From an uncultured Actinomycetota bacterium (GTDB taxonomy: Bacteria; Actinomycetota; Humimicrobiia; Humimicrobiales; Humimicrobiaceae), in assembly GCA_964423265.1 (NCBI GenBank), contig CAYREF010000003.1, forward strand, positions 1,912 to 65,911: DNA of 64,000 nt, in the 5' to 3' direction. This document shows positions 6,910 to 39,171 of the stretch, piece after piece. The position numbers were made by a program, and so were the translations under genes. Each line of letters opens with the position of its first letter. The stretch's first letter is position 1. The notes under the pieces were generated by a model that did not search any database, had not been told where the DNA came from, and worked only from the letters and a program-made list of their open reading frames with translations.

Positions 6910-7479
6910 ATGTTAACGGGCATTATTGTGCTAATCGTAGTGTTGGTTGCTATTATTGTAGCAATACTGCTTACTGTGGTGGGTTATTATAATTCAATAA
7001 TTTCTACCAGGAATAAGGTAGACAATGCCTGGCATCAAATTGATGTGCAGCTGAGAAAGAGATATGACCTTATACCTAATTTGGTAGAAACAGTCAAAGG
7101 ATATGCAGCCCATGAAAAAGAAACCTTACAAAAGGTTACAGAGGCCAGGAATTTTGGTATAAATGCCAATTCGGTAAAGGAGCAGGCTGATGCAGAAAAC
7201 CAAATTACCAGTACCTTAAAATCTTTATTTGCTGTTTCTGAACAATACCCCAACCTTAAGGCTGACCAGCATTTTTCAAGGCTGATGGAACAGTTGAATG
7301 GAATTGAGAGCAATATTGCATATGCAAGGCAATTCTACAATGACATGGTCATGAAGTTTAATACCAAAATACAGACTTTTCCTGGAAATTTCTTTGCCAG
7401 GATGTTTAACTTCAGCCAAAAGGATTATTTTGAAATTACTGAAAGTTCGGCAAGAGGTCCTGTTAAGGTAGAATTTTAA
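6910..7479 (+). CDS. lemA: LemA family membrane protein
   Basis: N-terminal TM helix followed by the LemA signature (NKVDNAWHQIDVQLRKRYDLIPNLVETVKGYAAHEKETL). It is followed by an M48 protease gene, a conserved pairing. Confidence 0.85.
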   Translation: MLTGIIVLIVVLVAIIVAILLTVVGYYNSIISTRNKVDNAWHQIDVQLRKRYDLIPNLVETVKGYAAHEKETLQKVTEARNFGINANSVKEQADAENQITSTLKSLFAVSEQYPNLKADQHFSRLMEQLNGIESNIAYARQFYNDMVMKFNTKIQTFPGNFFARMFNFSQKDYFEITESSARGPVKVEF

Positions 7480-25647: not shown

Positions 25648-26535
25648 ATGAAAGACAAGCTTAGTGGAGTGTTTGTTCCAACCATTACCCCTTTTGTAGG
25701 AGATGAAGTACAGTATGCTAAATTAGAAGAGAACTTAATAAAATTAAATAAGTCTTCTATTACCGGCCATCTGGCGCTGGGTTCTAATGGAGAATACAAA
25801 AGCCTTACCAGAGATGAGCAGTTGAAGGTATTGGAAGTGTTTGTTAAAAACAAAGGTGATAAGGTAATAATGGCTGGCACAGGTTGCGAATCAACCACCG
25901 AAACCATCCAGCTTAGCAAGGAAGCTGAAAGGATTGGAGCAGATTTTGTAAGTGTTTTAACTCCAAGTTATTTTAAAAAAATAATAAATGACGAAGTACT
26001 TATAAATTATTATACAGAGATAGCAGACAACATAAATATACCTCTGCTAATTTATAATGCTCCCGGTTTTACCAGCGGAGTAACAATTTCTGCAAAGGCT
26101 GTGAGGAAACTAGCCCGGCATCCTAATATAGTGGGCATGAAAGATAGTTCTAAGGCTGGAATTATGGGTTATATTACTGCCACTATGGATATTGATGATT
26201 TCTATGTTCTAGCTGGTTCTATTAACTTCTTTTTTACAGGGCTTGTTTGTGGAGCTGTTGGCGGGGTTTTATCATTGTCAAATGCTATACCTAATCTTTG
26301 CTGTAAATTGTATAATTTATACTTAAATGGCAAAATTGAGGAAGCAAAACGCTTGCACTTAAAGCTATTTCAGGTTAACGGAAAGGTATCCGGGGCTAAT
26401 GCTGTAAGCGGGGTTAAAGCTGCTGCATCTATCTGCGGGTATTTTGGTGGGGAGCCTAGAAAGCCATTAGCAGCCCTGGCTCCGGAAGAAAAAAAAGGAC
26501 TTAAGGAATATTTTAAGCAAGAAGGATTGATTTAA
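25648..26535 (+). CDS. DHDPS/N-acetylneuraminate-lyase-family class I aldolase or dehydratase (paralogue 1)
   Basis: TPF...GSNGEY motif and Schiff-base lysine context (IVGMKDSSK). Only 18 bp after aspS, with an AAGGAGG RBS. Confidence 0.75.
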   Translation: MKDKLSGVFVPTITPFVGDEVQYAKLEENLIKLNKSSITGHLALGSNGEYKSLTRDEQLKVLEVFVKNKGDKVIMAGTGCESTTETIQLSKEAERIGADFVSVLTPSYFKKIINDEVLINYYTEIADNINIPLLIYNAPGFTSGVTISAKAVRKLARHPNIVGMKDSSKAGIMGYITATMDIDDFYVLAGSINFFFTGLVCGAVGGVLSLSNAIPNLCCKLYNLYLNGKIEEAKRLHLKLFQVNGKVSGANAVSGVKAAASICGYFGGEPRKPLAALAPEEKKGLKEYFKQEGLI

Positions 26536-27510
26536 ATGGCAAAGGTATTGTTGGGACAAAAAATACACAAGGATGCAATAAATTTTCTCAAAAACAAAGG
26601 TTTTGAGGTCATTGTTTCCAGCTCTCCGGAGGATGAAGTGGTGAGAAAGCAAATTAAAGATATTGATGGCCTTATTGTAAGGACTGCTACCAAATTAAGC
26701 AGAGAGACAATATTGGCGGCAAAAAGGCTGAAAGTTATAGGAAGAACAGGAAAAGGGGTGGACAATGTAGATGTAAAAGCTGCTTCAGAAAAAAATATTT
26801 TCGTGTGTAACGCCCCTGAAGCCAATATTGAGACAGTGGCAGAGCATGCTATTGCCTTTATGCTTGTTCTTGCTAAAAATTTGAAAGCCATGGACAATGC
26901 AGTAAGGGGCTTAAGGTGGAAGATAAGGAATAACTATATTCCCATAGATATTTCTGGAAAAATTTTAGGATTAGTTGGTTTTGGCAATATTGGCAGGGCA
27001 ATGGCCAGAAAATGTTATAATGCATTTAACATGGATATAATCGCCTATGATCCTTTTTTACCTGAAGGTTTAGAAGTTAATTTCCCCTTTAAGCTTAAAG
27101 GTAGTTTGGATGAGGTATTTATGGAAGCAGACTTTGTGTCCCTGCATATTCCTTATACTAAAGAGAATCATCATCTGGTTGGAAAAAACCTTTTGAGTAA
27201 AATGAAGAAAGGCTCCTTTTTGATAAACACTTCACGCGGAGGAATTGTAGATGAAAAAGCATTGGCTGGTATTCTAAAAGATGGAGGCATAGGCGGGGCT
27301 GCTTTGGATGTATTTGAAAACGAGCCTCCTAAAAAAAAGAACCCGCTATTAGGTATTGAAAGCGTTATCCTTACACCGCATTCTGCAGCCTTAACCGGTG
27401 AAAGTTCCAGGAGAATGGCTATGCATGCAGCAGAAGGAGTAACAGATGTTTTAGAGGGGCGAAAACCCCGGTGGGTATTTAACAGGGATAGCATTAAAGC
27501 AGGCAAATAA
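26536..27510 (+). CDS. D-isomer-specific 2-hydroxyacid dehydrogenase (paralogue 1)
   Basis: GLVGFGNIGRAMARK Rossmann motif and catalytic His in TPHSAALT. Its start abuts the upstream stop. Confidence 0.8.
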   Translation: MAKVLLGQKIHKDAINFLKNKGFEVIVSSSPEDEVVRKQIKDIDGLIVRTATKLSRETILAAKRLKVIGRTGKGVDNVDVKAASEKNIFVCNAPEANIETVAEHAIAFMLVLAKNLKAMDNAVRGLRWKIRNNYIPIDISGKILGLVGFGNIGRAMARKCYNAFNMDIIAYDPFLPEGLEVNFPFKLKGSLDEVFMEADFVSLHIPYTKENHHLVGKNLLSKMKKGSFLINTSRGGIVDEKALAGILKDGGIGGAALDVFENEPPKKKNPLLGIESVILTPHSAALTGESSRRMAMHAAEGVTDVLEGRKPRWVFNRDSIKAGK

Positions 27511-27573
27511 TTTTTGCATTTTTTTAAACGGATAATTTATATAGTATGCTGTTAATCATATAAGGAGGTTAAA

Positions 27574-27969
27574 ATGAAATATGTAAAAAATATACAAGAT
27601 TTAAAGGCTGATATTGATCCCAGGTCCTTAAGGGATAGGGTAAAAAAGCGGGACAAAGCTATATTAAGAGACACAAATTATGTAATTGATCCTGAAGATG
27701 AAGGTTGTGAGTCAAGGAGGCTAACTCTAGGCCACACCATAATTTATCCTACCGGTACTACTACGGGGCACTCACATGATGATATGGAAGAAGTATACTA
27801 TGTAGTAATGGGTAAAGGAGTTATGGTTGTTGGAGATGATGAGTATGATATTAGGCAGGGTGATGCTCTATACGTGCCTCCTGGAGAGTTTCATACAACC
27901 AAGCAAAGGGGAAATTTACCCCTTATCGTGGTTTGGGTAACTTGCAAGGTTGATCCTGATGAAAGATAA
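27574..27969 (+). CDS. Cupin-domain protein with cPGI-like metal-site motifs (possible sugar or sugar-phosphate isomerase)
   Basis: TTGHSHDDMEEVYY (TxGHxHx4EEvY) and PPGEFHTT (PPxxxH); 131 aa. Confidence 0.55.
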   Translation: MKYVKNIQDLKADIDPRSLRDRVKKRDKAILRDTNYVIDPEDEGCESRRLTLGHTIIYPTGTTTGHSHDDMEEVYYVVMGKGVMVVGDDEYDIRQGDALYVPPGEFHTTKQRGNLPLIVVWVTCKVDPDER

Positions 27970-28001
27970 GAAATAAAATTTTTCGAATAGGGGAGAAAGC
28001 T

Positions 28002-29444
28002 ATGATAAGAGAAAAATTACTAATTGGTGGAGAATGGGTAAAAGCAGAAGCTAAGGACACCATGGAGGTAATTAATCCGGCTTATGGAGAAGTTTTTGGG
28101 GAAGTCCAAAAAGCCCGCAGGAAAGATGTATGTAAGGCTATTAATGCTGCCGGTGAAGCATTTGGTAAATGGTCTAAACTAACTCCTTTCGAAAGGGGAG
28201 AGTACCTCAGGAAAGCCAGTGACATGGTATATGAAAGAGTAGATGAGATTGCCAAACTTATGACCCAGGAAGAAGGGAAGCCTCTAAAGGAAGCTGCAGG
28301 AGAAGTTAAAAAAGGTGCAAAGATTTTAGATTATTATGCCGAAGAGGGTGAAAGAGTGTATGGAAGGATTATTGCCAATGAGGATAAAAATATGGAAAGC
28401 AGAGTAATATATCAACCGATTGGAGTGGCAGGAGCTATTTCTCCCTGGAATTATCCCATTGAATTGCTTGCATGGAAAGTTGGAGGTGCCCTTGCTTCTG
28501 GCTGTACTGTAGTTGCAAAGCTGCCATCAGAAACGCCTTTATCTCCTCTTGCTTTTATTAAATGCCTTGTGGATGCAGGTGTACCTGATGGGGTAGTAAA
28601 TGCAATTACCGGTTCTGGCTCCGAAGTGGGCCCAATACTTTTTAATAGCAAAAAAGTAAAAAAGATTGCTTTTACAGGCTCAACCAGTACTGGAAGGGAA
28701 GTTCTAAAGGGTTGTGCGGACACATTTAAAAAGGTATCTGTAGAATTAGGCGGAAGTCTTCCCATGGTCATATGCAAGGATTGTAATCTTGATAAGGCTG
28801 TAGAAGGAGCTGTAAGAAGATCATTTAGGAATATGGGCCAGATATGCATAGCTGTAAACAGGATTTATGTGGATGCGGCTATATATGAAGATTTTATCGA
28901 AAAATTTGCAGAACAGGCAGGAAAGCTAACTATTGGCGACGGATTAAAAGAAGATTGTAATTTGGGACCTATGTGTACTACCGGTGGGGTAAAAACAGCA
29001 AAAAGGCATATAGAAGATGCAGTATCAAAGGGGGCTAAAGTTGCTTGCGGCGGGGGAAAGCCCTCTGCAGAAAAGTATAAGAAAGGTTATTATTTCCAGC
29101 CCACAATTCTCCGTGATGTTGACCATAGTATGCTGGTTATGCAGGAAGAGACCTTTGGTCCGGTAGTCGGGGTCATGTCTTTTAAGACATTAGAGGAAGC
29201 TGTAGAGCTTGCCAATGATTCTCCTTACGGGTTGGCCGCAATTGTATTTACTGAAAGCTTAAGCATAACAAACAGGCTATCGCTGGAAATAGAGGCTGGA
29301 AATGTAGCTATCAATAATGTGGATGCAGGCGTTATAAATGCACCTTACGGGGGATGGAAAGAAAGTGGCTATGGGCATGAGCATGGGCCTGAAGGTTTAT
29401 ACGAGTATCTGTTAATTAAGCATATAAGGCTCCGTTATCTCTAA
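28002..29444 (+). CDS. NAD(P)+-dependent aldehyde dehydrogenase (hydrolytic ALDH, paralogue 1)
   Basis: General-base motif ELGGSLP, catalytic Cys in GQICIAVNRIYV, NAD site FTGSTSTG. Confidence 0.85.
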   Translation: MIREKLLIGGEWVKAEAKDTMEVINPAYGEVFGEVQKARRKDVCKAINAAGEAFGKWSKLTPFERGEYLRKASDMVYERVDEIAKLMTQEEGKPLKEAAGEVKKGAKILDYYAEEGERVYGRIIANEDKNMESRVIYQPIGVAGAISPWNYPIELLAWKVGGALASGCTVVAKLPSETPLSPLAFIKCLVDAGVPDGVVNAITGSGSEVGPILFNSKKVKKIAFTGSTSTGREVLKGCADTFKKVSVELGGSLPMVICKDCNLDKAVEGAVRRSFRNMGQICIAVNRIYVDAAIYEDFIEKFAEQAGKLTIGDGLKEDCNLGPMCTTGGVKTAKRHIEDAVSKGAKVACGGGKPSAEKYKKGYYFQPTILRDVDHSMLVMQEETFGPVVGVMSFKTLEEAVELANDSPYGLAAIVFTESLSITNRLSLEIEAGNVAINNVDAGVINAPYGGWKESGYGHEHGPEGLYEYLLIKHIRLRYL

Positions 29445-29479
29445 AGATAATTTGCTAATTATAAGCAAGGAGAATTCAA

Positions 29480-31024
29480 ATGGCAAATAAATATATAATT
29501 GGCATAGATATAGGTACTACTGGCTGTAAATCGATTATGGTTGATGCAAATGGCCAGCTGATATGCTCTGCAACAGAAGAATACCCCCTGTATACGCCTA
29601 ATCCCGGCTGGGCAGAACAGAATCCTGGCGACTGGTGGGATGCAACAGTTAAAACTTTACAAAGAATCATTAAAGAAAGTGCGGTCCCTACAGAAGAGAT
29701 AAAGGGAATAGGTCTTTCTGGACAAATGCATGGCTTGGTACCATTGGATAAGGATGGGGAGGTTGTAAGGCCTGCATTTCTTTGGAATGACCAAAGGACA
29801 GAAAAACAGTGCAGGGAAATTATTGCTGCTGCAGGCGGAGAAAAAGAATTATTAAAGTATACCAACAATAGCATGCTTCCAGGTTATACCGGCGGAAAGA
29901 TACTTTGGCTAATGCAAGAAGAGCCCGGAAATTTTAAAAAGTCAAAAATTTTTTTGAATCCAAAAGATTATATTAGGTATAAGCTTACTGGAAAATTTGC
30001 TACTGAAGTATCAGATGCCTCGGGGACTGGGTTATTTGATGTGGAAAATAGAAGATGGAGTGAAGAGCTACTAGAAATTTTAAAAATCCCTAAAAAGCTA
30101 CTGCCGCAGTGCTATGAGTCTCCCGAGGTTACTGGTTATGTAACAGTGGAAGTATCTACATTGGCCGGCCTTAAAGAAAATACTCCAGTAGTCGGGGGAG
30201 GGGGAGACTCTGTTGTACAAACTACCGGAACCGGCCTTATAAACGAGGGGATATTAGGGCTAACCCTTGGCACTGCAGGAATTGTAGCTATGGGGCTAGA
30301 AAGATTTAAGTTTAATTCGACTGGAAAGCTACAAATATTTTGTAATAATGCCCCAAATAAATGGCATATAATGGGGGTAACTTTGGCTGCAGGAGGGTCA
30401 TTTCATTGGTTTAAAAATAATTTATGCAAGCATGAAATAAGGGTGGCAGAAAAAACAGGCCAGAGTGTTTTTGAAATAATAAATAAAAGTATTGAAAAGC
30501 AAACAGAACCAGGGAGTAAAAATCTGGTATTCTTACCTTATTTAATTGGTGAAAGATGTCCTTACCCTGATCCAAATGCCAAAGGTGTTTTCGTGGGATT
30601 AACCTTAAGGCATACCCATGCAGACATGGCCAGGAGTGTAATGGAAGGTGTAGGTTTCAGCCTAAAACAGGTTTATGATTTAATAATTGATATGGATAGA
30701 AATCTTGCTGTAAACGAGATACGGACTTCTGGAGGAGGCTCTTCCAGCCTTCTTTGGAGGCAAATTATTGCAGATATTTTCCAACTTCCGGTAAAGACTG
30801 TTAGTGGAAGCAAAGAAGGCGGAGCTTACGGAGCGGCATTAGTTGCTGGAACCGGCTGTGGCATATGGTCTAGCATGGAAGAAGCAACCAAGGTGCTGAA
30901 GGTAGAAACAGAGTTGTTACCAGATAAGAAAAATAAAGGAATTTATACTCAACTGTATGGGGTTTATGCCAAACTTTACAACAATTTAAAAGAAGGTTTT
31001 GACGCTTTATCAACTATTAAATAA
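29480..31024 (+). CDS. FGGY-family carbohydrate kinase (xylulokinase/gluconokinase-like)
   Basis: N-terminal IGIDIGTTGCKS, FGGY N- and C-domains, GGGSSS. Confidence 0.8.
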   Translation: MANKYIIGIDIGTTGCKSIMVDANGQLICSATEEYPLYTPNPGWAEQNPGDWWDATVKTLQRIIKESAVPTEEIKGIGLSGQMHGLVPLDKDGEVVRPAFLWNDQRTEKQCREIIAAAGGEKELLKYTNNSMLPGYTGGKILWLMQEEPGNFKKSKIFLNPKDYIRYKLTGKFATEVSDASGTGLFDVENRRWSEELLEILKIPKKLLPQCYESPEVTGYVTVEVSTLAGLKENTPVVGGGGDSVVQTTGTGLINEGILGLTLGTAGIVAMGLERFKFNSTGKLQIFCNNAPNKWHIMGVTLAAGGSFHWFKNNLCKHEIRVAEKTGQSVFEIINKSIEKQTEPGSKNLVFLPYLIGERCPYPDPNAKGVFVGLTLRHTHADMARSVMEGVGFSLKQVYDLIIDMDRNLAVNEIRTSGGGSSSLLWRQIIADIFQLPVKTVSGSKEGGAYGAALVAGTGCGIWSSMEEATKVLKVETELLPDKKNKGIYTQLYGVYAKLYNNLKEGFDALSTIK

Positions 31025-31033
31025 GAGTTAAGG

Positions 31034-31663
31034 TTAGAAATACTTTTTTACAGCTTCTAGATGTTCAATTATCAAGGCTGAAGCTTCGTTAGGGTGGTTT
31101 TTTAAAATTTCTTCTATTATCCTATTATGGTATTTAAGGCTTTCTTTTAGCTTAGTTCTAAAGCCCTTAGTATAGGATAAGAGCAAAATATTAAATGAAT
31201 TATTTATATGCTTCAGGTAAGAATTTGCTGATGTTTCAAGAAGGTAAAGATGGAATTTTTTGTCTATTTCAAAATATTCGCTTGGATTTTTACCCTTTAC
31301 GGCTTGTTCAAATTTTTGCTTAAAATCCAAAAGTCTATCTTTTATGGAATTGTTAAGGTTTTCAGAAATTTTTTCTACTGCCAGGCTTTCAAAAGAGCCC
31401 CTTATTTCAAGAAGCTCGTAGAATTCCTGTTTTGAAATTTTTCGGACAAAAAAGCCTTTTCTAGGATGGTATTCTATAAGCCTTTCGTTCTGGAGGACTG
31501 ACAGAGCTTGTATTAAAGGAATCTTGCTTATACCCAGTCTTTCTGCCATTTTTTCCTGGATAATTTTTTCCCCGGGCTTAAGTAAGTCCTCAAGAATTAG
31601 GAGCTTAATTTTGCTGTAAGCCTGTTCACTTAAATTATTCTGCTTGATTTTGTTAATGTTCAT
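31034..31663 (-). CDS. GntR/FadR-family transcriptional regulator (FCD effector domain), paralogue A
   Basis: wHTH EKMAERLGISKIPLIQALSVLQNERLIEYHPRKGFFV followed by a helical effector domain. Confidence 0.8.
   Translation of the reverse strand: MNINKIKQNNLSEQAYSKIKLLILEDLLKPGEKIIQEKMAERLGISKIPLIQALSVLQNERLIEYHPRKGFFVRKISKQEFYELLEIRGSFESLAVEKISENLNNSIKDRLLDFKQKFEQAVKGKNPSEYFEIDKKFHLYLLETSANSYLKHINNSFNILLLSYTKGFRTKLKESLKYHNRIIEEILKNHPNEASALIIEHLEAVKKYF
31423..31582. repeat. 160-bp block identical to 32057..32216 (GntR HTH-coding segment); similarity continues at >90% to about 31640 and 32274
   Basis: Direct comparison of the two sequences. A second 49-bp identical block is at 31185..31233 and 31819..31867. 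Confidence 0.9.
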
Positions 31664-32294
31664 CTAAAAGATGTGACTCCTTTTTATGTTCTATATGGAC
31701 TTTCATTAATTTTAATGCTTCAGCCATTTCTTTTTTAAGTATTGCATTAATAATCTTTCTGTGGTAGTCCATGCTTAATTCAATTTTTGTCCTAAAGCCT
31801 TTGGTAAAGCAAAGAAGTAAAATATTAAATGAATTATTTATATGCTTCAGGTAAGAATTTGCTGATGCTTCAAAAAGAAAGTAATGGAATTTTTTATCAA
31901 CATCATAATATTTAATATAGTCTTTTTTTTCATTATATTTTTCGAAATCGCTTAAAAATTTCCGGAGTGTTTTTTTAACTCCCTCATTTAAATTGCCAAT
32001 TATTTTTTGCACTGCAAGGCATTCCAGGATTCTCCTTACGTCGATAAGGTCATAATATTCCTGTTTTGAAATTTTTCGGACAAAAAAGCCTTTTCTAGGA
32101 TGGTATTCTATAAGCCTTTCGTTCTGGAGGACTGACAGAGCTTGTATTAAAGGAATCTTGCTTATACCCAGTCTTTCTGCCATTTTTTCCTGGATAATTT
32201 TTTCCCCGGGCTTAAGCACGTCATCAAGAATTAGGAGCTTAATTTTGCCGTAAGCCTGTTCACTTAAATTATTTTGATTTATTTTTAAGTCCAT
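31653..32294 (-). CDS. GntR/FadR-family transcriptional regulator, paralogue B (tandem duplicate)
   Basis: The N-terminal HTH is nearly identical to paralogue A. The effector domain has diverged but keeps ANSYLKHINNSFNILLL. Confidence 0.8.
   Translation of the reverse strand: MDLKINQNNLSEQAYGKIKLLILDDVLKPGEKIIQEKMAERLGISKIPLIQALSVLQNERLIEYHPRKGFFVRKISKQEYYDLIDVRRILECLAVQKIIGNLNEGVKKTLRKFLSDFEKYNEKKDYIKYYDVDKKFHYFLFEASANSYLKHINNSFNILLLCFTKGFRTKIELSMDYHRKIINAILKKEMAEALKLMKVHIEHKKESHLLDEH
32057..32216. repeat. Second copy of the 160-bp identical block (see 31423..31582)
   Basis: Direct comparison. Confidence 0.9.
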
Positions 32295-32639
32295 ATTAGC
32301 TTTTTACATAATGCATTAGCTAAAAATAAAAGGCTTTTTTATTGATATATATTTTTTAGTATTGACATTATTTGCATACATTATACAATATTCATTAACA
32401 ACTTAAAATGTAAATTTTTAAAAAATCACTAAACATAGATTAAACAATAATTTTAAAGGGAAGAAGATAAATTTTTAAAATATTGTATACTGTATATGCT
32501 AAATAGGTTCCTTTGCCTGGTTTAGTATTTATTGATAGTAAAGAATTATAACTATAAAATTATTAACACAATGAGGTGAGATATAGAAAACCTACTTTGT
32601 TAATTTAAATTCCGTTGTAGAACCCAATTATTAGGATAG

Positions 32640-32885
32640 GAGGATGAATCTGATATACAATCCACAGTAAAAATAGTAGAATTCCAGGGGGATAGCACTG
32701 TGTTAACTTTAAAGCTTGATGATCCTGCTAATAGCGAAATATAGGTTACCACTTCAGTGGGAAGTGAAAGCTACAAGAGGAATGAAAAGTCCTGGCTAAA
32801 ATTTAAGCCAGAATTTGTGCACCTCTTTGATAAGGAAGAAAAAGCAATAATAAAAAGTCTGGGTATCGAAAGCATTATTTGCTAA
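32640..32885 (+). pseudogene. Decayed 3' remnant of a sugar ABC-transporter ATP-binding gene (MalK/MsmX-type TOBE domain) with an internal TAG
   Basis: A single frame reads EDESDIQSTVKIVEFQGDSTVLTLKLDDPANSEI*VTTSVGSESYKRNEKSWLKFKPEFVHLFDKEEKAI.... This matches the MalK C-terminus pattern (VEQLGNETQIHIQI...PERCHLFRED). There is no start codon and no ATPase domain upstream. Confidence 0.4.
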
Positions 32886-32947
32886 ACTAAAAATCAAAAG
32901 TGGTAAGCCGGATTTGGATTGCAAAAGAAATCTGGAAAGCTATAAAT

Positions 32948-33727
32948 ATGGGTAAAAAAAGAGACGCTCTATCATTTTTTAAACTAGATGGTAAAAAAGC
33001 AGTGGTAACAGGTGCGGGAAGAGGCCTGGGAAAAGAATTAGCAATAGGTCTGGCAGAAGCAGGAGCAGATGTAGCGTTAGTTGACAAGCTGAAAAAAGAA
33101 GCTTCCGATGGCTGCAAGCAAATAGAGGCAATGGGAAGGAATGCAATTGCCATTGAAGCGGATGTAAGCAAGGAGGAGGATGTAAAAGCTGCAGTTCATT
33201 CTATAAAAAAAGAATTTGGGGAAATAAACATTCTGGTTTGTAATGCCGGCATAGTTAGCTGGTCTCCAGCTGAGGAAATGTCTATAGAAGACTGGCAAGA
33301 AGTTATTGATGTTAACCTGACTGGTGTTTTCCTTTTTTGCAAATGGGTAGCAAAAGAAATGAAAAAACAGGGGGGAGGCAGCATAATTAATATATCCTCT
33401 ATGTCCGGAATTATAGTAAATGTTCCCCAAAAACAATGTCATTATAATGCTTCCAAGGCAGGAGTTAGCCATCTTACAAAATCATTGGCAGTTGAATGGG
33501 CTCCTTACAATATAAGGGTAAATGCAATCTGTCCCGGTTACATTATGACCCCTCTTTTGAAACTGGCGGATAAAAAGTACATAGATGAATGGACTTCATA
33601 TACCCCCCAGAAAAGGATACCTGACCCTTCTGAGTTTAAGGGCTTGTGCATATTCTTAGCATCAAGCGCCTCCAGTTATGTAACTGGTAGTGCTATTGTC
33701 GCAGATGGGGGATATAGTTTGTGGTAA
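32948..33727 (+). CDS. SDR-family oxidoreductase (KduD/gluconate-5-dehydrogenase-like)
   Basis: GKKAVVTGAGRGLGKELA and a YxxxK active site (YNASKAG). ATG at 32948 is preferred over the ORF-track start. Confidence 0.8.
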   Translation: MGKKRDALSFFKLDGKKAVVTGAGRGLGKELAIGLAEAGADVALVDKLKKEASDGCKQIEAMGRNAIAIEADVSKEEDVKAAVHSIKKEFGEINILVCNAGIVSWSPAEEMSIEDWQEVIDVNLTGVFLFCKWVAKEMKKQGGGSIINISSMSGIIVNVPQKQCHYNASKAGVSHLTKSLAVEWAPYNIRVNAICPGYIMTPLLKLADKKYIDEWTSYTPQKRIPDPSEFKGLCIFLASSASSYVTGSAIVADGGYSLW

Positions 33728-33766
33728 TTTTAAGCGTTTAATAATATTTTTAAAGGAGGATAAAAT

Positions 33767-35110
33767 ATGGCTGTTAATTCTAAGCTTAAATTCGGATTTA
33801 TAAACCTGGCTCTAGATTTTTTAGAAAAGGAAGATCTGGAAACTGCAACTAAATATGCGAATGAAGCAAAGGGATACCTGCAGGAAGAATTGGGGATATC
33901 TATAGTAGAGTCAGCTTCTTCGGTGGATAGTAGGGCTAAATCCAGGATTGCATGGCAAAAATTTAAGGAAGAAAATGTTGATGCAGTAGTAATATTTAAT
34001 GGCACTTTTAGTACTGGAGAAGTGGCTACCGAAGTTATTAGAAATCTGGATGTACCTTACCTTATTTGGGGAATAGAAGAATTTGCCATAAAAAAACATA
34101 ACTTTACTGGCTCTATGGTAGGAGTTTTGCCTTTGGGAACTGTGTTTAAGAATTTTGGGAGGCCTTTCTCCTTTGCTTATGGAAATGTTGGGGGCGGAAA
34201 ACCCAAGAAAAATGTTAATAAGTTTGTAAAGGCTGTGGAGGCTATTTCTTATTTAAATGAAGCCACTATCGGCGTTATAGGAATGAGGCCTGATGGCTTT
34301 GAAATTTCAGATTTTGATGAGCTGGCTATAAAGAATAAGTTTGGAACTACCATTACAAAAGTATCCATGTACGGTTTTTCTAAAGTAATTGAAAGTGTAA
34401 CTGAAAAAGAAATAGACAAGGATATGGAGCAACAGAAGAAAATTTTTAATATTGCTGATAAAGATCTTGAGGAAGCCAGGGGAATTTCAAAGGTTTATCT
34501 TGCTACTAAAAAAGCTGTTGAAGAAAACAACTTAAATGCATACGCTCCGGATTGCTGGCCTGAATTGAGAGATATTGATTGTACCCCGATTTGCCCGGCA
34601 AACGGAAGATGCAATGCGGAAGGAGTAATGGCATCTTGTGAATGTGATGTTGACGGGGCTTTAACCTTAATGTTGCAACATGTTTTGGCTGAATCAACCC
34701 CATGGTTTGCGGATTTTGTAAATATTATAGAGGAAAATGATACTTTACTTTTCTGGCATTGCGGTAATGCCCCCTATAATTTATCAACGGATAAACCAAA
34801 AATAGAAAAGATTTTTGGCGGTCTCTCACAGGTAGCTGCTCTAAAAAGCGGAGTGGTAACAGTTTGCAGGCTTAATTCTATAAGGGGCGAATATGTATTG
34901 CATGCTGGCATTGGGGAAGCAGTTGAAACAGAGCCGCTGCTAAAAGGCAGCAACCTTTCAATAAGGATGGAGGGCGGCAATTTAGAATTTGTGGAATCAT
35001 TGCTAGATAATGGAATCCCCCACCATAATGGATTGGTTTACGGGGATATCCTGGAAGAATTAGAAGAATTTGCAAAACTCATGCAAATACCTTTTATTGT
35101 AAGTAAATAA
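33767..35110 (+). CDS. Sugar isomerase of the L-arabinose/L-fucose isomerase (AraA/FucI, COG2407-like) family
   Basis: 447 aa; the N-terminal Rossmann-like region and C-terminal part (WHCGNAPYN...HAGIGE) loosely resemble AraA. Family-level call only. Confidence 0.45.
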   Translation: MAVNSKLKFGFINLALDFLEKEDLETATKYANEAKGYLQEELGISIVESASSVDSRAKSRIAWQKFKEENVDAVVIFNGTFSTGEVATEVIRNLDVPYLIWGIEEFAIKKHNFTGSMVGVLPLGTVFKNFGRPFSFAYGNVGGGKPKKNVNKFVKAVEAISYLNEATIGVIGMRPDGFEISDFDELAIKNKFGTTITKVSMYGFSKVIESVTEKEIDKDMEQQKKIFNIADKDLEEARGISKVYLATKKAVEENNLNAYAPDCWPELRDIDCTPICPANGRCNAEGVMASCECDVDGALTLMLQHVLAESTPWFADFVNIIEENDTLLFWHCGNAPYNLSTDKPKIEKIFGGLSQVAALKSGVVTVCRLNSIRGEYVLHAGIGEAVETEPLLKGSNLSIRMEGGNLEFVESLLDNGIPHHNGLVYGDILEELEEFAKLMQIPFIVSK

Positions 35111-35126
35111 TTTTTAAGGAGGAAAT

Positions 35127-36602
35127 ATGAAAAAGTATAAACTATTTATCAATAATCAATGGGTAGATGCTGAAGATAAGAAAACCTTTGTATCTAAATG
35201 CCCTGCTACAGGCGAAGAACTTGCAGAACTGGCCCTGGCCAAGGAGAAGGATGTGGACAAAGCAGTAGCGGCAGCAAGGGCGGCTTTCCCTAAATGGGCT
35301 GCAACCAGCGGAGATGACAGGGCAAACTTGATGATGAAAGCTATGGATATAATGAAAAAAAGACATGATGAGCTGGCAGAAATAGAAGCAAAAGATGTGG
35401 GAAAACCAATAAAGGAAACTCAAGATGTTGACATTGAATATGCTTTAATGGCTATGGAGTATTTTTCGAATAAGGCCAGACAAATAAGGGGAGATGAAGT
35501 TCCAATTGAAGGCGGAGAAACTTTATGTTATGAGACCTGGGAACCTTATGGAGTAGTTGCCTCAATTATCCCATGGAATTTTCCTGTCCATATAGCTACC
35601 AGAACCATTTGTCCTGCACTTTCAGCAGGTAATACCGTTGTACTAAAAGCTTCCTCGCTCGCACCAATTACTTGCCAGATATTGGGTGAAATATTTTTGG
35701 AAGCAGGATATCCGGAAGGTGTGCTAAACATTGTTTCAGGATCAGGTAGTATAACAGGCGAGGCTATGTTAGTACATCCTGATATCGACATGATATCATT
35801 TACTGGATCTTCTGCAGTTGGTAGGCGGTGCATGCAGGCTGCAGCTGAATCAAATCTTAAAAAAGTTATACTCGAGCTTGGCGGCAAAGGTCCATTTATA
35901 GCAACTAAGGACTGCAGGCTAAGCGATGCTGTAAATTCTCTCATACTGGGTTTCTGTTTCATGCAGGGTGAAGTTTGCTGTGCTTCTACCAGATTATATG
36001 CACATGAGGATATTTATGATGAATTTGTGGACTTATTGGTAAAAAGGTGCCAGAAGATAAAACTTGGGGACATAATGGATTCTGGAACGCAAATGGGTTC
36101 GCTAATAGATGAAGACCGGCTAAAGGCTGTGGACGGCTATGTTAAAAGAGCCGTAAAAGACGGCGCTAAGCTGTTATGTGGTGGCGAAAGGGTAACTGAT
36201 CCTCCTATGGATAAAGGATATTACTACCCACCCACAGTACTTGAAGTTGATGATAACAAGATGGAATGTGTACAGGAAGAGATATTTGGTCCTGTAGTTA
36301 CGGTTATGAAATACAGAGATTTTGATGAAGCCCTAAGGCTTGCCAATGATACGGTTTATGGCCTGGGAGCAACAGTGTGGAGTGAAGATGTTAGAAAACT
36401 AGTTAAAGCTACCAGGACTTTTGATGCGGGCATAGTTTGGATGAATACAAATGTAATGTCTAAGATAGAAGCTTCTTATGGCGGAAACAAAATGAGTGGA
36501 CTTGGAAGAGAAGGTGGAGAAGTAGGTCTGATGGAATACCTCAAATGCAAAAACAATGTTCTTTTCCTGGGAGAAGAAGGTAACTATTACGATTTTAAAT
36601 AA
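35127..36602 (+). CDS. NAD(P)+-dependent aldehyde dehydrogenase (hydrolytic ALDH, paralogue 2)
   Basis: ELGGKGP, catalytic Cys in GEVCCASTRLY, FTGSSAVG. Confidence 0.85.
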   Translation: MKKYKLFINNQWVDAEDKKTFVSKCPATGEELAELALAKEKDVDKAVAAARAAFPKWAATSGDDRANLMMKAMDIMKKRHDELAEIEAKDVGKPIKETQDVDIEYALMAMEYFSNKARQIRGDEVPIEGGETLCYETWEPYGVVASIIPWNFPVHIATRTICPALSAGNTVVLKASSLAPITCQILGEIFLEAGYPEGVLNIVSGSGSITGEAMLVHPDIDMISFTGSSAVGRRCMQAAAESNLKKVILELGGKGPFIATKDCRLSDAVNSLILGFCFMQGEVCCASTRLYAHEDIYDEFVDLLVKRCQKIKLGDIMDSGTQMGSLIDEDRLKAVDGYVKRAVKDGAKLLCGGERVTDPPMDKGYYYPPTVLEVDDNKMECVQEEIFGPVVTVMKYRDFDEALRLANDTVYGLGATVWSEDVRKLVKATRTFDAGIVWMNTNVMSKIEASYGGNKMSGLGREGGEVGLMEYLKCKNNVLFLGEEGNYYDFK

Positions 36603-36620
36603 ATAATGCTGTATTTATAA

Positions 36621-36667
36621 GAAAAAAAAAGGGGGCTCCTTGCTGGAGCCTCTCCTTTGTAATTTTT
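36621..36667 (+). terminator. Probable intrinsic terminator after ALDH-2 (A-run, GGCTCC-ttgct-GGAGCC hairpin, T-rich tail)
   Basis: Seen: aaaaaaaaagggGGCTCCttgctGGAGCCtctcctttgtaatttttt. Confidence 0.4.
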
Positions 36668-36714
36668 TAAAAATTACTATATGATTGAAGCCACTTTATA
36701 GAAGGATGATATAG

Positions 36715-37683
36715 ATGGGCGATGAGAGATTAAAAGTAGTATTTACTGATTTTGATTTTAATGATGTAAATATAGAAAAAGAGGTATTAGGGGAAACAAA
36801 CTGCGATATAGTTGAACTCCAAACCAAGGATGAAGATAAGCTAGCTGCAGAATGCGCCGATGCTGATGGATTAATAGTCCAGTATGCACCTATAACTGAA
36901 AAAGTTATAAACAGCATGAAAAAGTGTCAAGTTATATCCAGGTATGGAATTGGTGTAGATACTATAGATTTAGCCGCAGCTTCCAAAAAAGGAATACATG
37001 TATGTAATGTCCCTGATTATTGTCTGGATGAAGTTGCAGACCACAGCCTGGGGTTGATGTTCTCTTTGGGCAGGAAAATTGTAGCTCTGGACAATGCAGT
37101 GAAAAATGGCAAGTGGGATGCAGTTGGCGTAGCCCGGCCTATTTTTAATTTTAAGAGGCTGGTACTGGGAATTATCGGATTCGGAAAAATACCCCAGCAC
37201 TTATACCCTAAAACAGAACCCCTTTTTGGTAAAACTTTAGTATTTGACCCCTATATATCCAATGAAATAAAGGAAAAATTTAGCCTTAACATGGCCAGTT
37301 TTTACGAGATACTCCTGAACTCAGATTTTATATCTATACACTGTCCTTTAAATGATGCTACTTACCATATGTTTGATGAACGGGAATTCCAGCTTATGAA
37401 GCCAACTGCCTTTTTAGTTAATACGTCAAGGGGTGGTATAATAAATACCAAAGCCCTTTATCTGGCATTGCTTAACGGGCATCTGGCGGGGGCAGGCTTG
37501 GATGTTTTGGAAGAAGAACCTCCGGGAATGGACAATGAGCTGGTAAAGATGGATAATGTGATAGTAACCCCTCATGCTGGATTTTATTCAGAGTCCTCAA
37601 TTGAGGATTTAAAATATAAGACGGCTCAGAACATAGTTAAAATTTTAAAAGATGACCAGCCGCAAAACGTGGTAAATAAATAG
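36715..37683 (+). CDS. D-isomer-specific 2-hydroxyacid dehydrogenase (paralogue 2; atypical GxGxxG)
   Basis: Catalytic and NAD-binding domains with TPHAGFYS. The dinucleotide motif reads GIIGFGKIPQ. Confidence 0.75.
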   Translation: MGDERLKVVFTDFDFNDVNIEKEVLGETNCDIVELQTKDEDKLAAECADADGLIVQYAPITEKVINSMKKCQVISRYGIGVDTIDLAAASKKGIHVCNVPDYCLDEVADHSLGLMFSLGRKIVALDNAVKNGKWDAVGVARPIFNFKRLVLGIIGFGKIPQHLYPKTEPLFGKTLVFDPYISNEIKEKFSLNMASFYEILLNSDFISIHCPLNDATYHMFDEREFQLMKPTAFLVNTSRGGIINTKALYLALLNGHLAGAGLDVLEEEPPGMDNELVKMDNVIVTPHAGFYSESSIEDLKYKTAQNIVKILKDDQPQNVVNK

Positions 37684-37706
37684 GATTTTGAAAGGAGAAA
37701 TATATT

Positions 37707-38888
37707 ATGGATATCCCTGAAGGTGTAATAGTTGCAATGCTTACACCGTTTGATGAAAAAGGCAGAGTAGACGAAATTGAAGTCAGAAGGTTTGTGGACT
37801 TCTTAATCAACAAGGGAGTTGACGGGTTATTTCCGGTTGCTTCCTGCGGTGAATATACTCATATGGATATGGGGGAACGAAAATTCTTAATTGATGTGGT
37901 GGTTGATGAAGCAAATGGAAGGGTTCCTGTAATTCCAGGATCCGGAGCTACTTGCTACCACAAATCTATAGATATAGCTAGCTATGCAAAGGATAAAGGC
38001 TGTGAGGCGGTAGTTTTACACGGCCCTTATTTTTTCCAGAATGCCAAGGAAGTTGTTGAAGGGCACTTAAGGAAAGTTGCAGAATCTGTGGATATACCCA
38101 TCTTCCTTTATAACATTCCTTTCTTTGCCAATGAAATTACTCCTCAGATGGCTGAAAAGCTGTGTGGGATGCCTAATGTGGTGGGTATTAAAGATTCTTC
38201 AGGTAATATGGTAAATGTTATGAATCTTTTAGAGATGACTAGAAAAATAGATCCGGATTTTAGGGTACTAGTAGGTGCAGAAGAGATAATGCTTCCTGCA
38301 CTCATGATGGGAGGCAAGGGTTGCATGACGGCAACAGCTGGAATTTTACCTGAATTTATGGTAGGAATTTATGAAAATTTTAAAAATAAGAATATCCAGA
38401 ACGCTTATAATCTGCAATTTGCCATACTTTCCCTTATAAGGGAAATGAAGAGTGTAAATTTCCCCCAGGGTTTTAAGGAAGCATTAGATTTAAGGGGTAT
38501 AAAGGTAGGCCCTCCCAAGATGAATTATCCCGAACAAGAACTGGCCAAAATTGCTGACCTCAAGACAAGGCTAGAAATGGAAATGAAAAACCTGCTTGAG
38601 AGGTATTTTACGGGAGTTCCGCTAAACTATAGAGCAGACAAGCAATTTCTACAGAAATTCAGCTATCCAGCAGAAACTGCTCCTGAACAATCCGGGGAAA
38701 AGAAATACAATGATTGTTTAGTTTGTGGAATGTGCGAGGGAGATGTTGAGTGCAAGGTGGTCCCTTGTGACAGCATGCAGGAAAAGCCTTTAAGTAATTC
38801 TAAAACTGAAAAAATATCCAATGACATAGATGAAGACCAATTAAAAGAAATTATTACAAAAACTATAAAAAAAGTTCTAGGCAACTGA
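37707..38888 (+). CDS. DHDPS/NAL-family class I aldolase (paralogue 2) with a ~90-aa C-terminal tail: Cys cluster plus terminal amphipathic helix
   Basis: Core motifs VASCGEYTHMD and VVGIKDSSG. The tail reads ...CLVCGMCEGDVECKVVPC...EDQLKEIITKTIKKVLGN*. Confidence 0.7.
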   Translation: MDIPEGVIVAMLTPFDEKGRVDEIEVRRFVDFLINKGVDGLFPVASCGEYTHMDMGERKFLIDVVVDEANGRVPVIPGSGATCYHKSIDIASYAKDKGCEAVVLHGPYFFQNAKEVVEGHLRKVAESVDIPIFLYNIPFFANEITPQMAEKLCGMPNVVGIKDSSGNMVNVMNLLEMTRKIDPDFRVLVGAEEIMLPALMMGGKGCMTATAGILPEFMVGIYENFKNKNIQNAYNLQFAILSLIREMKSVNFPQGFKEALDLRGIKVGPPKMNYPEQELAKIADLKTRLEMEMKNLLERYFTGVPLNYRADKQFLQKFSYPAETAPEQSGEKKYNDCLVCGMCEGDVECKVVPCDSMQEKPLSNSKTEKISNDIDEDQLKEIITKTIKKVLGN

Positions 38889-38907
38889 GTAGAAAGGAAA
38901 ATAAAAG

Positions 38908-39171
38908 ATGAATAAGGCAATTGGACTGATTGAAACAAGGGGTCTGGTAGGTTCTATTGAAGCAGCAGATGCCATGGTAAAAGCAGCCAATGTAAAGCTC
39001 ATATCCAAAGCATATGTAGGCGGAGGATTGGTTACTGTAGTGGTTGAAGGTGATGTAGGTGCAGTTAAATCTGCAGTGGACGCAGGCAGTGCTGCTGCTA
39101 AAAGAGTAGGGGAATTAATTTCTGTTCATGTGATTCCAAGACCCCATGAAGATACCTCAAAAATACTTTAA
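38908..39171 (+). CDS. Bacterial microcompartment hexameric shell protein (BMC-H; PduA/EutM/CcmK family)
   Basis: [80 protein letters not shown] aligns to PduA along its whole length (the (I/V)HVIPRPH end is diagnostic). The RBS is 20 bp after the aldolase stop. Confidence 0.9.

Follow-up and report, generated by a model that had tools for sequence, protein, structure and literature searches.

Why does a gene for a bacterial microcompartment (BMC) shell protein stand directly behind the gene for a class I aldolase, in a stretch of DNA that encodes no other part of a microcompartment? We addressed this question for a 64,000-nucleotide stretch of contig CAYREF010000003.1 (positions 1,912 to 65,911 of the forward strand; assembly GCA_964423265.1) from an uncultured actinomycetotal bacterium of the family Humimicrobiaceae, and this whole stretch is referred to below as the window. 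The first open reading frame (ORF) of the pair (37707..38888, plus strand) encodes a 393-residue aldolase of the DHDPS/NAL family with a carboxyl-terminal tail of approximately 100 amino acids, and the second (38908..39171, plus strand) encodes an 87-residue protein of the BMC-H type. A sequence-only reading of the window had likened the end of the tail to the encapsulation peptides (EPs) of microcompartment cargo, had proposed either a satellite or a minimal microcompartment module, and had suggested profile searches for both proteins as well as modeling of the terminal helix. Our analysis indicates that 37707..39171 is probably a satellite module belonging to a metabolosome that has its main locus at another site in the genome.

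The catalytic core of the aldolase matched PF00701 over amino acids 5 to 269 (E 1.1e-63; 215 bits against a cut-off of 22.1). K162, within VVGIKDSSG, and Y135, within LYNIP, were invariant in the 23 to 25 aligned homologues, and we take these residues to be equivalent to K161 and Y133 of DapA, the Schiff-base lysine and the proton-relay tyrosine, respectively. The AlphaFold2 (AF2) model of the core was a confident beta/alpha barrel with predicted local distance difference test (pLDDT) values mostly above 90. By these features the 393-residue protein is an intact class I (Schiff-base) enzyme of the DHDPS/NAL family. A paralogue encoded at 25648..26535 comprises 295 amino acids, lacks the tail, and ends where the DHDPS fold ends. 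With NCBIfam models, the aldolase scored 171 bits for DapA, 155 for HpaI-like, 150 for NanA, and 103 to 106 for KdgD. Its identification as DapA was rejected (TIGR00674, 170.9 bits against an equivalog cut-off of 206.15), as was that as NanA, the scores with the models for NanA, archaeal 2-keto-3-deoxygluconate (KDG) aldolase, HpaI-like enzymes, and KdgD likewise being under their cut-offs, and YagE is at best a distant relative (E 1e-37). Given that the scores lie below the cut-offs for DapA, NanA, KDG aldolase, and KdgD, the enzyme belongs to an uncharacterized subfamily.

The downstream ORF matched PF00936 (E 1.1e-28) over profile positions 1 to 75 of 75, as a domain that is neither permuted nor tandem, and its residues 3 to 86 aligned collinearly and with few mismatches to the solved structure of PduA, 7mmx (E 1.4e-35). 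The hexamer-edge motifs DAMVKAAN and IPRPH align with those of PduA and of the BMC-H of HO-type microcompartments, with K25 and RPH being conserved, and the edge residues were invariant in an alignment (A5) that included BMC-H proteins of main loci. The ORF thus encodes a canonical BMC-H, which is predicted to form hexamers that enter shells. It is a satellite paralogue closest to the second BMC-H that relatives encode in their main locus (pore loop KAYVGSG / KEYAGGG, compared with KAYVGGG in the window), and it lacks the basic carboxyl-terminal extension of that protein. A tblastn search of the 64-kb window detected no BMC-P, BMC-T, PduS, PduL or phosphotransacylase (PTAC), class II aldolase, or BMC-type acylating aldehyde dehydrogenase (AldDh). 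The sequence-only reading had been correct with regard to the DHDPS/NAL core and its Schiff-base lysine, the tail-less paralogue, the PduA/EutM-like ORF with its own ribosome-binding site, the absence of BMC-P, BMC-T, PduL, and acylating aldehyde dehydrogenases (ALDHs) from the window, and the ELGG motif of the two nearby ALDHs, and both of the profile searches that it had suggested, with PF00701 and PF00936, returned matches.

The strongest evidence for a link to microcompartments is the association of tailed aldolases with shell genes. Three arrangements were found in the loci retrieved for comparison, which together with the retrieved proteins are cited here by number (L and P, respectively). 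In one of these, a BMC-H gene lies directly downstream of the tailed aldolase (the window, L001–L003, L020–L022, and L030, with aldolase identities of 63% to 86%), and because the pair of aldolase with tail and BMC-H recurs in all of these other loci, its occurrence in the window is not a matter of chance. In another, the tailed aldolase is preceded by a conserved set of five different BMC-P genes in divergent orientation (L004, L005, L024, and L027). The third, represented by L023, has the tailed aldolase at the edge of a complete metabolosome locus, in the order HpcH aldolase, 2-keto-3-deoxy-6-phosphogluconate (KDPG) aldolase, PfkB kinase, tailed aldolase, YhcH/DUF386, DeoR, two BMC-P, PduS, BMC-T, class II aldolase with a carboxyl-terminal EP, BMC-H, PTAC with an amino-terminal EP, AldDh with an amino-terminal EP, BMC-H with an extension, and BMC-T; most of these assignments were confirmed with Pfam, and those of BMC-P, BMC-H, and DeoR were made by tblastn or blastp. 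Among GTDB species representatives, shell genes were present within 10 kb at 7 of 17 tailed loci and at none of 58 loci of tail-less homologues (Fisher p about 1e-5), a comparison that is supportive rather than rigorous given that the two groups differ in taxonomy.

Two further observations concern these arrangements. At L022 (4829..8160), the tailed aldolase and BMC-H genes come immediately after aspS, and the other ten genes of the surrounding island are missing, so that the pair behaves as an independent unit at the aspS/alaS insertion point. The sets of five BMC-P genes (L004, 8334..9793; L011, 8877..10288; L017, 9721..11075; L024 and L027; and L104, 1..360) are orthologous between genomes, and they are either divergent from a tailed aldolase or located next to a short-chain dehydrogenase/reductase (SDR) gene, in which case folate/cobalt-transport genes and moeA form the flanks and a ParE/Phd pair is adjacent. 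Such a quintet and the two BMC-P genes of a main locus would amount to an unusually high number of pentamer genes if both are present in one genome.

Close relatives provide a view of the remainder of the organelle. L021 (JBNJCW010000015) shows full synteny with the window over the whole interval between aspS and alaS, with identities of 77% for the aldolase and 90% for BMC-H, and the metagenome-assembled genome (MAG) to which it belongs, GCA_051744345.1, has a complete main locus, L100, on a different contig (JBNJCW010000051). The genes of L100 are, in order, DeoR, two BMC-P, PduS, BMC-T, class II aldolase with a carboxyl-terminal EP, BMC-H, PTAC with an amino-terminal EP, acylating AldDh with an amino-terminal EP, a second BMC-H with a basic tail, and BMC-T, and 3' of the shell genes are those for LarA, an FAD-linked oxidase, a CCG Fe-S protein, GcvH, and RACo. 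The nearest relative in the genome collection, L020 (JAGYOJ010000009; aldolase identity of 86%, BMC-H identity of 97%), is part of the same MAG (GCA_018399435.1) as L103 (JAGYOJ010000031), where BMC-H, PTAC, AldDh, BMC-H, and BMC-T are followed by LarA, FAD-oxidase, and CCG Fe-S genes; the L103 contig starts inside the locus, so that the BMC-P end is not seen, and carries neither BMC-P nor class II aldolase. The tailed aldolase of L025 likewise shares a MAG (GCA_022865545.1) with L014, which has those four BMC-P genes of the quintet that are complete on its contig. The same main locus, with an acetate kinase gene, was found in L101 and L104, and its AldDh family comprises about 90 clusters in the lineage. 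Two AldDh proteins, P0317 and P0326, were rejected as same-genome partners of the pair; they belong to other MAGs and serve as further examples of the main locus.

According to Sutter et al. (2021, PMC8217296), a main locus contains at least one BMC-H plus at least one BMC-P, whereas a satellite locus contains one or more shell genes, alone or with enzymes, that do not include both types. With one BMC-H and no BMC-P in 64 kb, the window corresponds to the shell-gene part of the satellite definition, and the same-genome main locus is complete in GCA_051744345.1, with its two BMC-P genes, and partial in GCA_018399435.1. Given that MAGs with the same syntenic pair encode the main locus or part of it, the satellite half of the earlier proposal is supported and the minimal microcompartment is not.

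Two features of the main loci are of interest in their own right. The PTAC gene with the amino-terminal EP (4466..5512) and the BMC-H gene with the basic carboxyl-terminal tail (6959..7330) of L100 are intact and in frame and were left uncalled in the source annotation, so that automated counts of BMC genes in these MAGs are too low. In addition, genes for LarA (lactate racemase), an FAD-linked oxidase, a CCG-type Fe-S protein, GcvH, and a RACo-like protein lie 3' of the shell genes in all examples (L100, 7892..13302; L101, 12375..18573; L103, 3874..10077), which suggests that this BMC type comes with a dedicated set for lactate handling and reductive activation.

A search of 5.8 billion proteins yielded more than 100 tail-bearing homologues of the aldolase (55% to 98% identity), and the few with source names were almost all from MAGs of Actinomycetota or Candidatus Humimicrobiaceae. 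Alignments and the AF2 model divide the tail, which ends in ...DIDEDQLKEIITKTIKKVLGN, into four parts: an ordered extension, a cysteine motif, a disordered linker, and a terminal amphipathic helix. The extension was modeled with pLDDT values of about 91 to 92 for amino acids 301 to 320 and without regular secondary structure (conservation of 0.49). Values below 50 were obtained for amino acids 339 to 373, and column conservation fell to 0.16 in the linker, compared with 0.81 in the core, with the distance between the cysteine motif and the helix ranging from 12 to 41 amino acids across the tailed family. The helix is predicted to span residues 376 to 392 (about 17 amino acids) with pLDDT values of 66 to 86 and a conservation of 0.44 across the family. 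Short forms of the protein (P0111–P0119 and L039; 43% to 51% identity) are without the extension and the cysteine motif and keep a P/S/A-rich linker and the helix (...DRAEVERIVKQVVEQLARKNL), whereas the nearest tail-less homologues (L042–L048; 44% to 47% identity) and the window paralogue end at approximately 295 to 311 amino acids. One MAG (JAMDEN01) encodes two tailed DHDPS paralogues, L031 and L033, with identities of 63% and 62% to the window protein, respectively, and no shell gene was present within the fetched flanks of either; the tailed family has therefore diversified within genomes.

The cysteine motif had been missed by the sequence-only reading. The pattern CxxCxxC was present in 89 of 94 tailed homologues, 56 of which have a fourth cysteine within 8 amino acids, and C7, C10, and C13 were invariant in alignment A3 (motif conservation of 0.61). 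The family pattern is DC-x2-CG-x-C-x-GD(-x2-3-C), and the AF2 model leaves it disordered. Elsewhere in the fetched loci, CxxCxxC occurred mainly in 4Fe-4S-type domains (CxxCGxCxxxCP contexts), and the motif may be a metal or Fe-S site. In a high-GC lineage (L008, 9487..10275), a class II aldolase encoded after a short-form, EP-bearing DHDPS protein also ends in CxxCGxC (...DGCLGCGACSNGRH).

EPs have been described as terminal amphipathic helices, approximately 18 residues in length, that are joined to the enzyme by a disordered linker of low conservation (PMC12339742, PMC11585597). As judged from the alignments and the model, the anatomy of the tail matches this definition in its terminal helix, its flexible linker, and the lack of the whole extension in tail-less homologues. 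The hydrophobic moment of the helix is 0.62 and the median of the tailed family is 0.66, in comparison with 0.57 to 0.81 for the EPs on AldDh, PTAC, and class II aldolase of the lineage and a background median of 0.39. By eye, the window helix (IDEDQLKEIITKTIKKVL) also resembles the EPs of AldDh (IDEKTVEKIVRSVIENL), PTAC (DTEKLIRDVVVNV), and class II aldolase (DELVKLVTRIVVNIV) in pattern, a resemblance that is not a statistic. We infer from these features that the terminal helix acts as an EP. With regard to this part of the earlier proposal, the anatomy of helix and linker thus held up, whereas the likeness to PduP, PduD, and EutC is one of pattern only and no EP profile matched the window protein significantly.

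A profile of the tail (cysteine motif plus helix) detected no other cargo family among 1.84 billion representative proteins at the sensitivity of that search; the matches were fragments of the same aldolase family, an unrelated cysteine repeat protein, and unrelated proteins with repeated helices. The last of these, P0252–P0257 (177 to 506 amino acids), matched the helix part of the profile; a helix such as ESQLHKIVSESVKKVLKE recurs two to four times in these proteins, typically at both ends, and they are not obviously related to microcompartments or assignable to a named family.

In the mechanism that we propose, the terminal helix would bring the aldolase into the condensate of cargo proteins and attach it to the BMC-H layer. 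Once encapsulated, the enzyme would split a 2-keto-3-deoxy sugar acid into pyruvate and an aldehyde, most likely lactaldehyde or alternatively glycolaldehyde or glyceraldehyde, and the aldehyde would be captured by the resident core of acylating AldDh, PTAC, and, where present, acetate kinase, which would also take lactaldehyde from the class II fuculose/rhamnulose-phosphate aldolase. When the module is induced, the additional BMC-H expressed with the enzyme would enter the shell, where it may offer a surface for docking or change how readily the sugar acid or pyruvate passes through. In this way, the module would plug a nonphosphorylative sugar-acid route into a MIC4/PVM-like metabolosome of the fucose/rhamnose type, as a second source of aldehyde. 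From family functions, the presumed logic of the main locus is that of PVM-like fucose/rhamnose BMCs: the class II aldolase yields lactaldehyde, AldDh converts it to acyl-CoA, and PTAC and acetate kinase produce acid and ATP, with LarA and a lactate-oxidase-like complex presumably acting at a later step.

The neighborhoods of other tailed aldolases point toward such a route. Genes for an SDR, a lactonase, and an MR_MLE (enolase-superfamily) dehydratase lie directly upstream of the tailed aldolase in L006, L032, and L034 and are adjacent to it in L004 and L027, and a gene for the anomerase YhcH/DUF386 lies directly downstream in eight loci. YhcH supplies open-chain substrate to NanA (PMC8141875), and oxidative nonphosphorylative sugar routes end in pyruvate plus lactaldehyde or glycolaldehyde (PMC5080750, PMC6336799). 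The SDR-lactonase-dehydratase-YhcH context reads as a signature of oxidative nonphosphorylative sugar routes, and the window-type context, with its isomerase, ALDH, and 2-hydroxyacid dehydrogenase, differs from it.

Several observations weigh against a cargo aldolase in a satellite module. The main locus was seen in close relatives and is extrapolated from them to the window's own genome, and 10 of the 17 tailed loci are without a shell gene within 10 kb. Binding of the helix to a shell is predicted from sequence pattern and context. The hydrophobic moment of the helix reaches just the ~94th to 95th percentile of background windows. The published EP test consisted of one ep_hmms profile of Sutter et al. 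(2021), which covers the first 13 positions of the EP of GRM5 alcohol dehydrogenase and, like EP profiles in general, is cargo-specific; it gave –8 bits for the window tail and 18 to 23 bits for the short forms P0111–P0119. A hidden Markov model (HMM) of 61 unique amino-terminal EPs of AldDh from the lineage likewise gave no significant match to the window tail, a test without power given that it missed the known EPs of PTAC and class II aldolase as well and finds AldDh alone. The conserved cysteine motif has no place in the classical EP model. Moreover, the 64-kb window contains none of the dehydrogenase, lactonase, dehydratase, and YhcH genes of the other contexts, and the hydrolytic ALDH and the 2-hydroxyacid dehydrogenase encoded directly upstream, both without an extension, could process the aldehyde in the cytosol.

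Much of this would also fit a tail that is not a targeting signal and is instead a metal-binding, regulatory, or oligomerization extension of a cytosolic aldolase, with the BMC-H being a permeability-tuning satellite paralogue linked to the enzyme by co-regulation on the same sugar. The lack of a significant match to EP profiles, a cysteine motif suggestive of another function, the adjoining genes for ALDH and 2-hydroxyacid dehydrogenase without extensions, the tailed loci without a nearby shell gene, and the similar amphipathic helices of the unrelated P0252–P0257 all favor this explanation. It is nonetheless unlikely, given that the short forms keep the helix without the cysteine motif while the linker is free to vary, which is a signature of EPs, that the tail is confined to BMC-connected lineages and loci and never occurs in the tail-less sister group, and that its helix is similar in pattern to the EPs on three core enzymes. 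Even with targeting accepted, the chemistry might be that of KdgD or of a 2-keto-3-deoxy-pentonate dehydratase, with alpha-ketoglutarate semialdehyde (KGSA) being formed in the compartment. Dehydratases of this type are members of the superfamily (PMC13398020), the SDR-lactonase-MR_MLE context is as compatible with the Weimberg route as with aldolase routes, and the window ALDHs score fairly well, yet below the cut-offs, with models for KGSA dehydrogenase. However, the higher NCBIfam scores for DapA, HpaI-like, and NanA than for KdgD, the known partnership of YhcH with the aldolase NanA (PMC8141875), and the resident core of class II aldolase, AldDh, PTAC, and LarA, which points to lactaldehyde and lactate chemistry, render a dehydratase decidedly improbable.

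The pair might instead form a minimal module of its own, in which sheets or tubes of BMC-H scaffold the tailed aldolase without a closed shell or any other locus. The absence of other shell or core genes from the window and the persistence of the pair as a unit, as in L022, are compatible with such a module, and BMC-H alone can form sheets and tubes (PMC10100840). Against it, the two nearest checkable relatives share the identical syntenic pair, and each has a conventional main locus, either whole or in large part, other tailed members adjoin BMC-P genes or sit in a full locus, and the AldDh family of the main locus is widespread in the lineage, so that we give a stand-alone module very little credence. 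A satellite module with an EP-bearing aldolase remains our preferred interpretation. Within it, the tail might be a two-part device, in which the cysteine motif binds a metal or an Fe-S cluster in addition to the function of the EP and either cross-links cargo or couples the aldolase to the PduS/PduT Fe-S electron conduit of the same shell. This idea is prompted by the CxxCGxC end of the class II aldolase in L008 and recalls the cysteine-rich cargo extensions of MIC3, MIC6, and MUF2, which are mentioned and left unexplained in the 2021 catalog (PMC8217296); we regard it as speculative and rather unlikely.

Comparison with known systems places the module among satellites of a described organelle kind. 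EUT modules (EutABC plus EutL) occur as satellites beside HO, SPU3, and SPU6 BMCs, and aldolase plus BMC-P satellites occur with HO and MIC3 (Sutter et al. 2021, PMC8217296). Like these, the window combines a shell gene with an aldehyde-generating enzyme away from the main locus for BMC-P, AldDh, and PTAC, and by analogy a widening of the substrate range of the organelle is a likely shared role of EUT-type satellites and the window module. Unlike them, the window has a DHDPS/NAL enzyme, a plain BMC-H rather than EutL or BMC-P as its partner, and an additional cysteine motif in the tail. Class II aldolases (PF00596) with a carboxyl-terminal EP are known from PVM, PVM-like, GRM5, ACI, MIC4, MUF2, and MUF3 BMCs (PMC8217296), and the main loci of the lineage encode one as well (L023, L100, L101, and L104), in line with the parallel that the sequence-only reading had drawn with the class II aldolase of fucose/rhamnose BMCs. 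The two aldolases share an EP-like carboxyl-terminal helix behind a linker and the release of lactaldehyde from a deoxy-sugar derivative, which for the window enzyme is a prediction. The class II enzyme is metal-dependent, however, whereas that of the window is a Schiff-base TIM barrel of unrelated fold and mechanism, and the former splits a ketose-1-phosphate with dihydroxyacetone phosphate (DHAP) as co-product, whereas the latter is predicted to split a 2-keto-3-deoxy acid with formation of pyruvate.

DeoC-type deoxyribose-phosphate aldolase (DERA; PF01791), the signature enzyme of SPU BMCs (PMC11585597), is also a class I, Schiff-base, aldehyde-generating BMC enzyme and sometimes has terminal extensions, but it differs from the window aldolase in its Pfam family, its substrate (deoxyribose-5-phosphate), the amino-terminal position of its extensions, and its lack of pyruvate chemistry. 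With regard to enzyme content, the main loci of the relatives resemble MIC4 and MUF3 (AldDh, PTAC, PF00596 aldolase, acetate kinase, and PduS/PduT), with L101 and L104 holding the full set and L100 and L023 missing the kinase alone, and Actinobacteria are among the hosts listed for MIC4 in the 2021 catalog (PMC8217296). They differ from the published types in having two main-locus BMC-P genes and a separate quintet rather than the described triplet and in having LarA, FAD-oxidase, and CCG genes as well as a PF00701 satellite. The only mention of PF00701 in the catalog concerns MUF2, for which a 'nearby pfam00701 class I aldolase' and a separate protein with a six-cysteine domain and a carboxyl-terminal EP are noted (PMC8217296). 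As described, that case shares with ours a PF00701 protein near a BMC locus and the combination of a cysteine-rich segment with a carboxyl-terminal EP, but it is from Gemmatimonadetes and the EP is on the separate protein rather than on the aldolase. No other published connection of PF00701 with a BMC locus was found. Several homologues also have the dehydrogenase-lactonase-dehydratase context with a DHDPS-type aldolase that is known from the bifidobacterial L-fucose route (PMC5080750), pentose Route I (PMC6336799), and E. coli YagE/YjhH, although the aldolases of those nonphosphorylative routes are cytosolic, tail-less proteins of ~300 amino acids.

PF00701 was not among the BMC-associated families of the 2021 catalog (Supplementary Data 6; PMC8217296), and full-text literature searches returned no paper linking microcompartments with DHDPS/NAL enzymes, 2-keto-3-deoxy acids, or Humimicrobiia. 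Given its absence from the enzyme list of the catalog, the family represents new cargo for an organelle of an established kind; the novelty is in the cargo family and the satellite variant rather than in the kind of system. The suggestion that such a pairing had not been described therefore applies to the DHDPS/NAL family and does not extend to class I aldolase cargo in general, given the precedent of DERA in SPU BMCs (PMC11585597).

In the window, the pair closes a sugar/sugar-acid island located between aspS and alaS, with housekeeping genes on both flanks (relA, hisS, and aspS on one side and alaS, ruvX, and yceG on the other). The island encodes the tail-less DHDPS paralogue, two 2-hydroxyacid dehydrogenases, a cupin, two hydrolytic ALDHs, a xylulokinase-type FGGY kinase, two GntR/FCD regulators, an SDR, and a fucose-isomerase-like isomerase, and it is syntenic in L001, L021, and L029. 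No signal of horizontal transfer was found in base composition, the GC content of the island (0.35 to 0.41) being close to that of its flanks (0.34 to 0.38). Both ALDHs near the aldolase carry ELGG and lack an extension and were therefore rejected as the acylating AldDh of a BMC; one of them (35127..36602) showed a weak match to BMC AldDh, with ~20% identity. The two GntR/FCD genes (31034..32294, minus strand) are adjacent, overlapping, and opposite to the rest of the island, which they split in two, and at their position L001 and L021 have a single plus-strand GntR gene. The best named match of the isomerase (33767..35110) was to the sulfoquinovose isomerase model SftI (206 bits against a cut-off of 700), which offers a weak hint as to the sugar of the window-type module.

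Close to the pair, the 2-hydroxyacid dehydrogenase gene 5' of the tailed aldolase is kept in L001, L020, L021, L028, L029, and L031 and is a conserved partner in the window-type module. A hairpin upstream of it may be a terminator, in which case a unit of three genes, for 2-hydroxyacid dehydrogenase, aldolase, and BMC-H, would begin after it; this hairpin and a promoter-like site at 36657..36685 were both found by pattern match alone. No terminator-like site was present in the spacer between the aldolase and BMC-H genes, and the two are presumably co-transcribed. The coordinates of these features are collected in Table 1.

Table 1 Features of the tailed aldolase, the BMC-H gene, and their surroundings. 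Coordinates are window positions.
Feature	Position	Strand	Details
Catalytic core, DHDPS/NAL-family class I aldolase (aa 1–295)	37707..38591	+	Schiff-base Lys162, Tyr135
Ordered extension (aa 296–331; LLERYFTGVPLNY...FSYP)	38592..38699	+	Family-specific; packs on core
Cysteine motif KKYNDC337LVC340GMC343EGDVEC349KVVPC354 (aa 332–354)	38700..38768	+	C337-x2-C340-G-x-C343-x5-C349-x4-C354
Linker (aa 355–375)	38769..38831	+	Disordered, poorly conserved
Terminal amphipathic helix (aa 376–393; EDQLKEIITKTIKKVLGN)	38832..38885	+	Candidate EP
Intergenic spacer	38889..38907	+	19 nt; ribosome-binding site GAAAGGAAA
BMC-H shell protein, 87 aa	38908..39171	+	Single PF00936 domain, PduA/EutM-like; pore loop KAYVGGG
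D-isomer-specific 2-hydroxyacid dehydrogenase	36715..37683	+	PF02826/PF00389; 23 nt 5' of aldolase; no terminal extension
GC-rich hairpin	36631..36653	+	9-bp stem, 6 GC pairs; between ALDH gene (end 36602) and 2-hydroxyacid dehydrogenase gene
Rest of sugar/sugar-acid island	25648..36602	+	Pfam and NCBIfam assignments; whole island 25648..39171, pair at its end

Metabolosomes of the MIC, MUF, and FRAG types have been cataloged, and their functions are cryptic; a tailed aldolase tied to shell genes provides a concrete, testable lead to them. A natural plug-in satellite, consisting of one enzyme, one targeting tail, and one shell tile, would also be useful for the engineering of cargo loading. 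The most interesting loose end is the conserved cysteine motif in the cargo tail, a feature that current EP models do not explain. If the tail does prove to be a two-part device, it would represent a redox- or metal-dependent second layer of cargo organization in a family of uncharacterized metabolosomes, and a new BMC function, fed by sugar acids, would be defined by the DHDPS-type aldolase.

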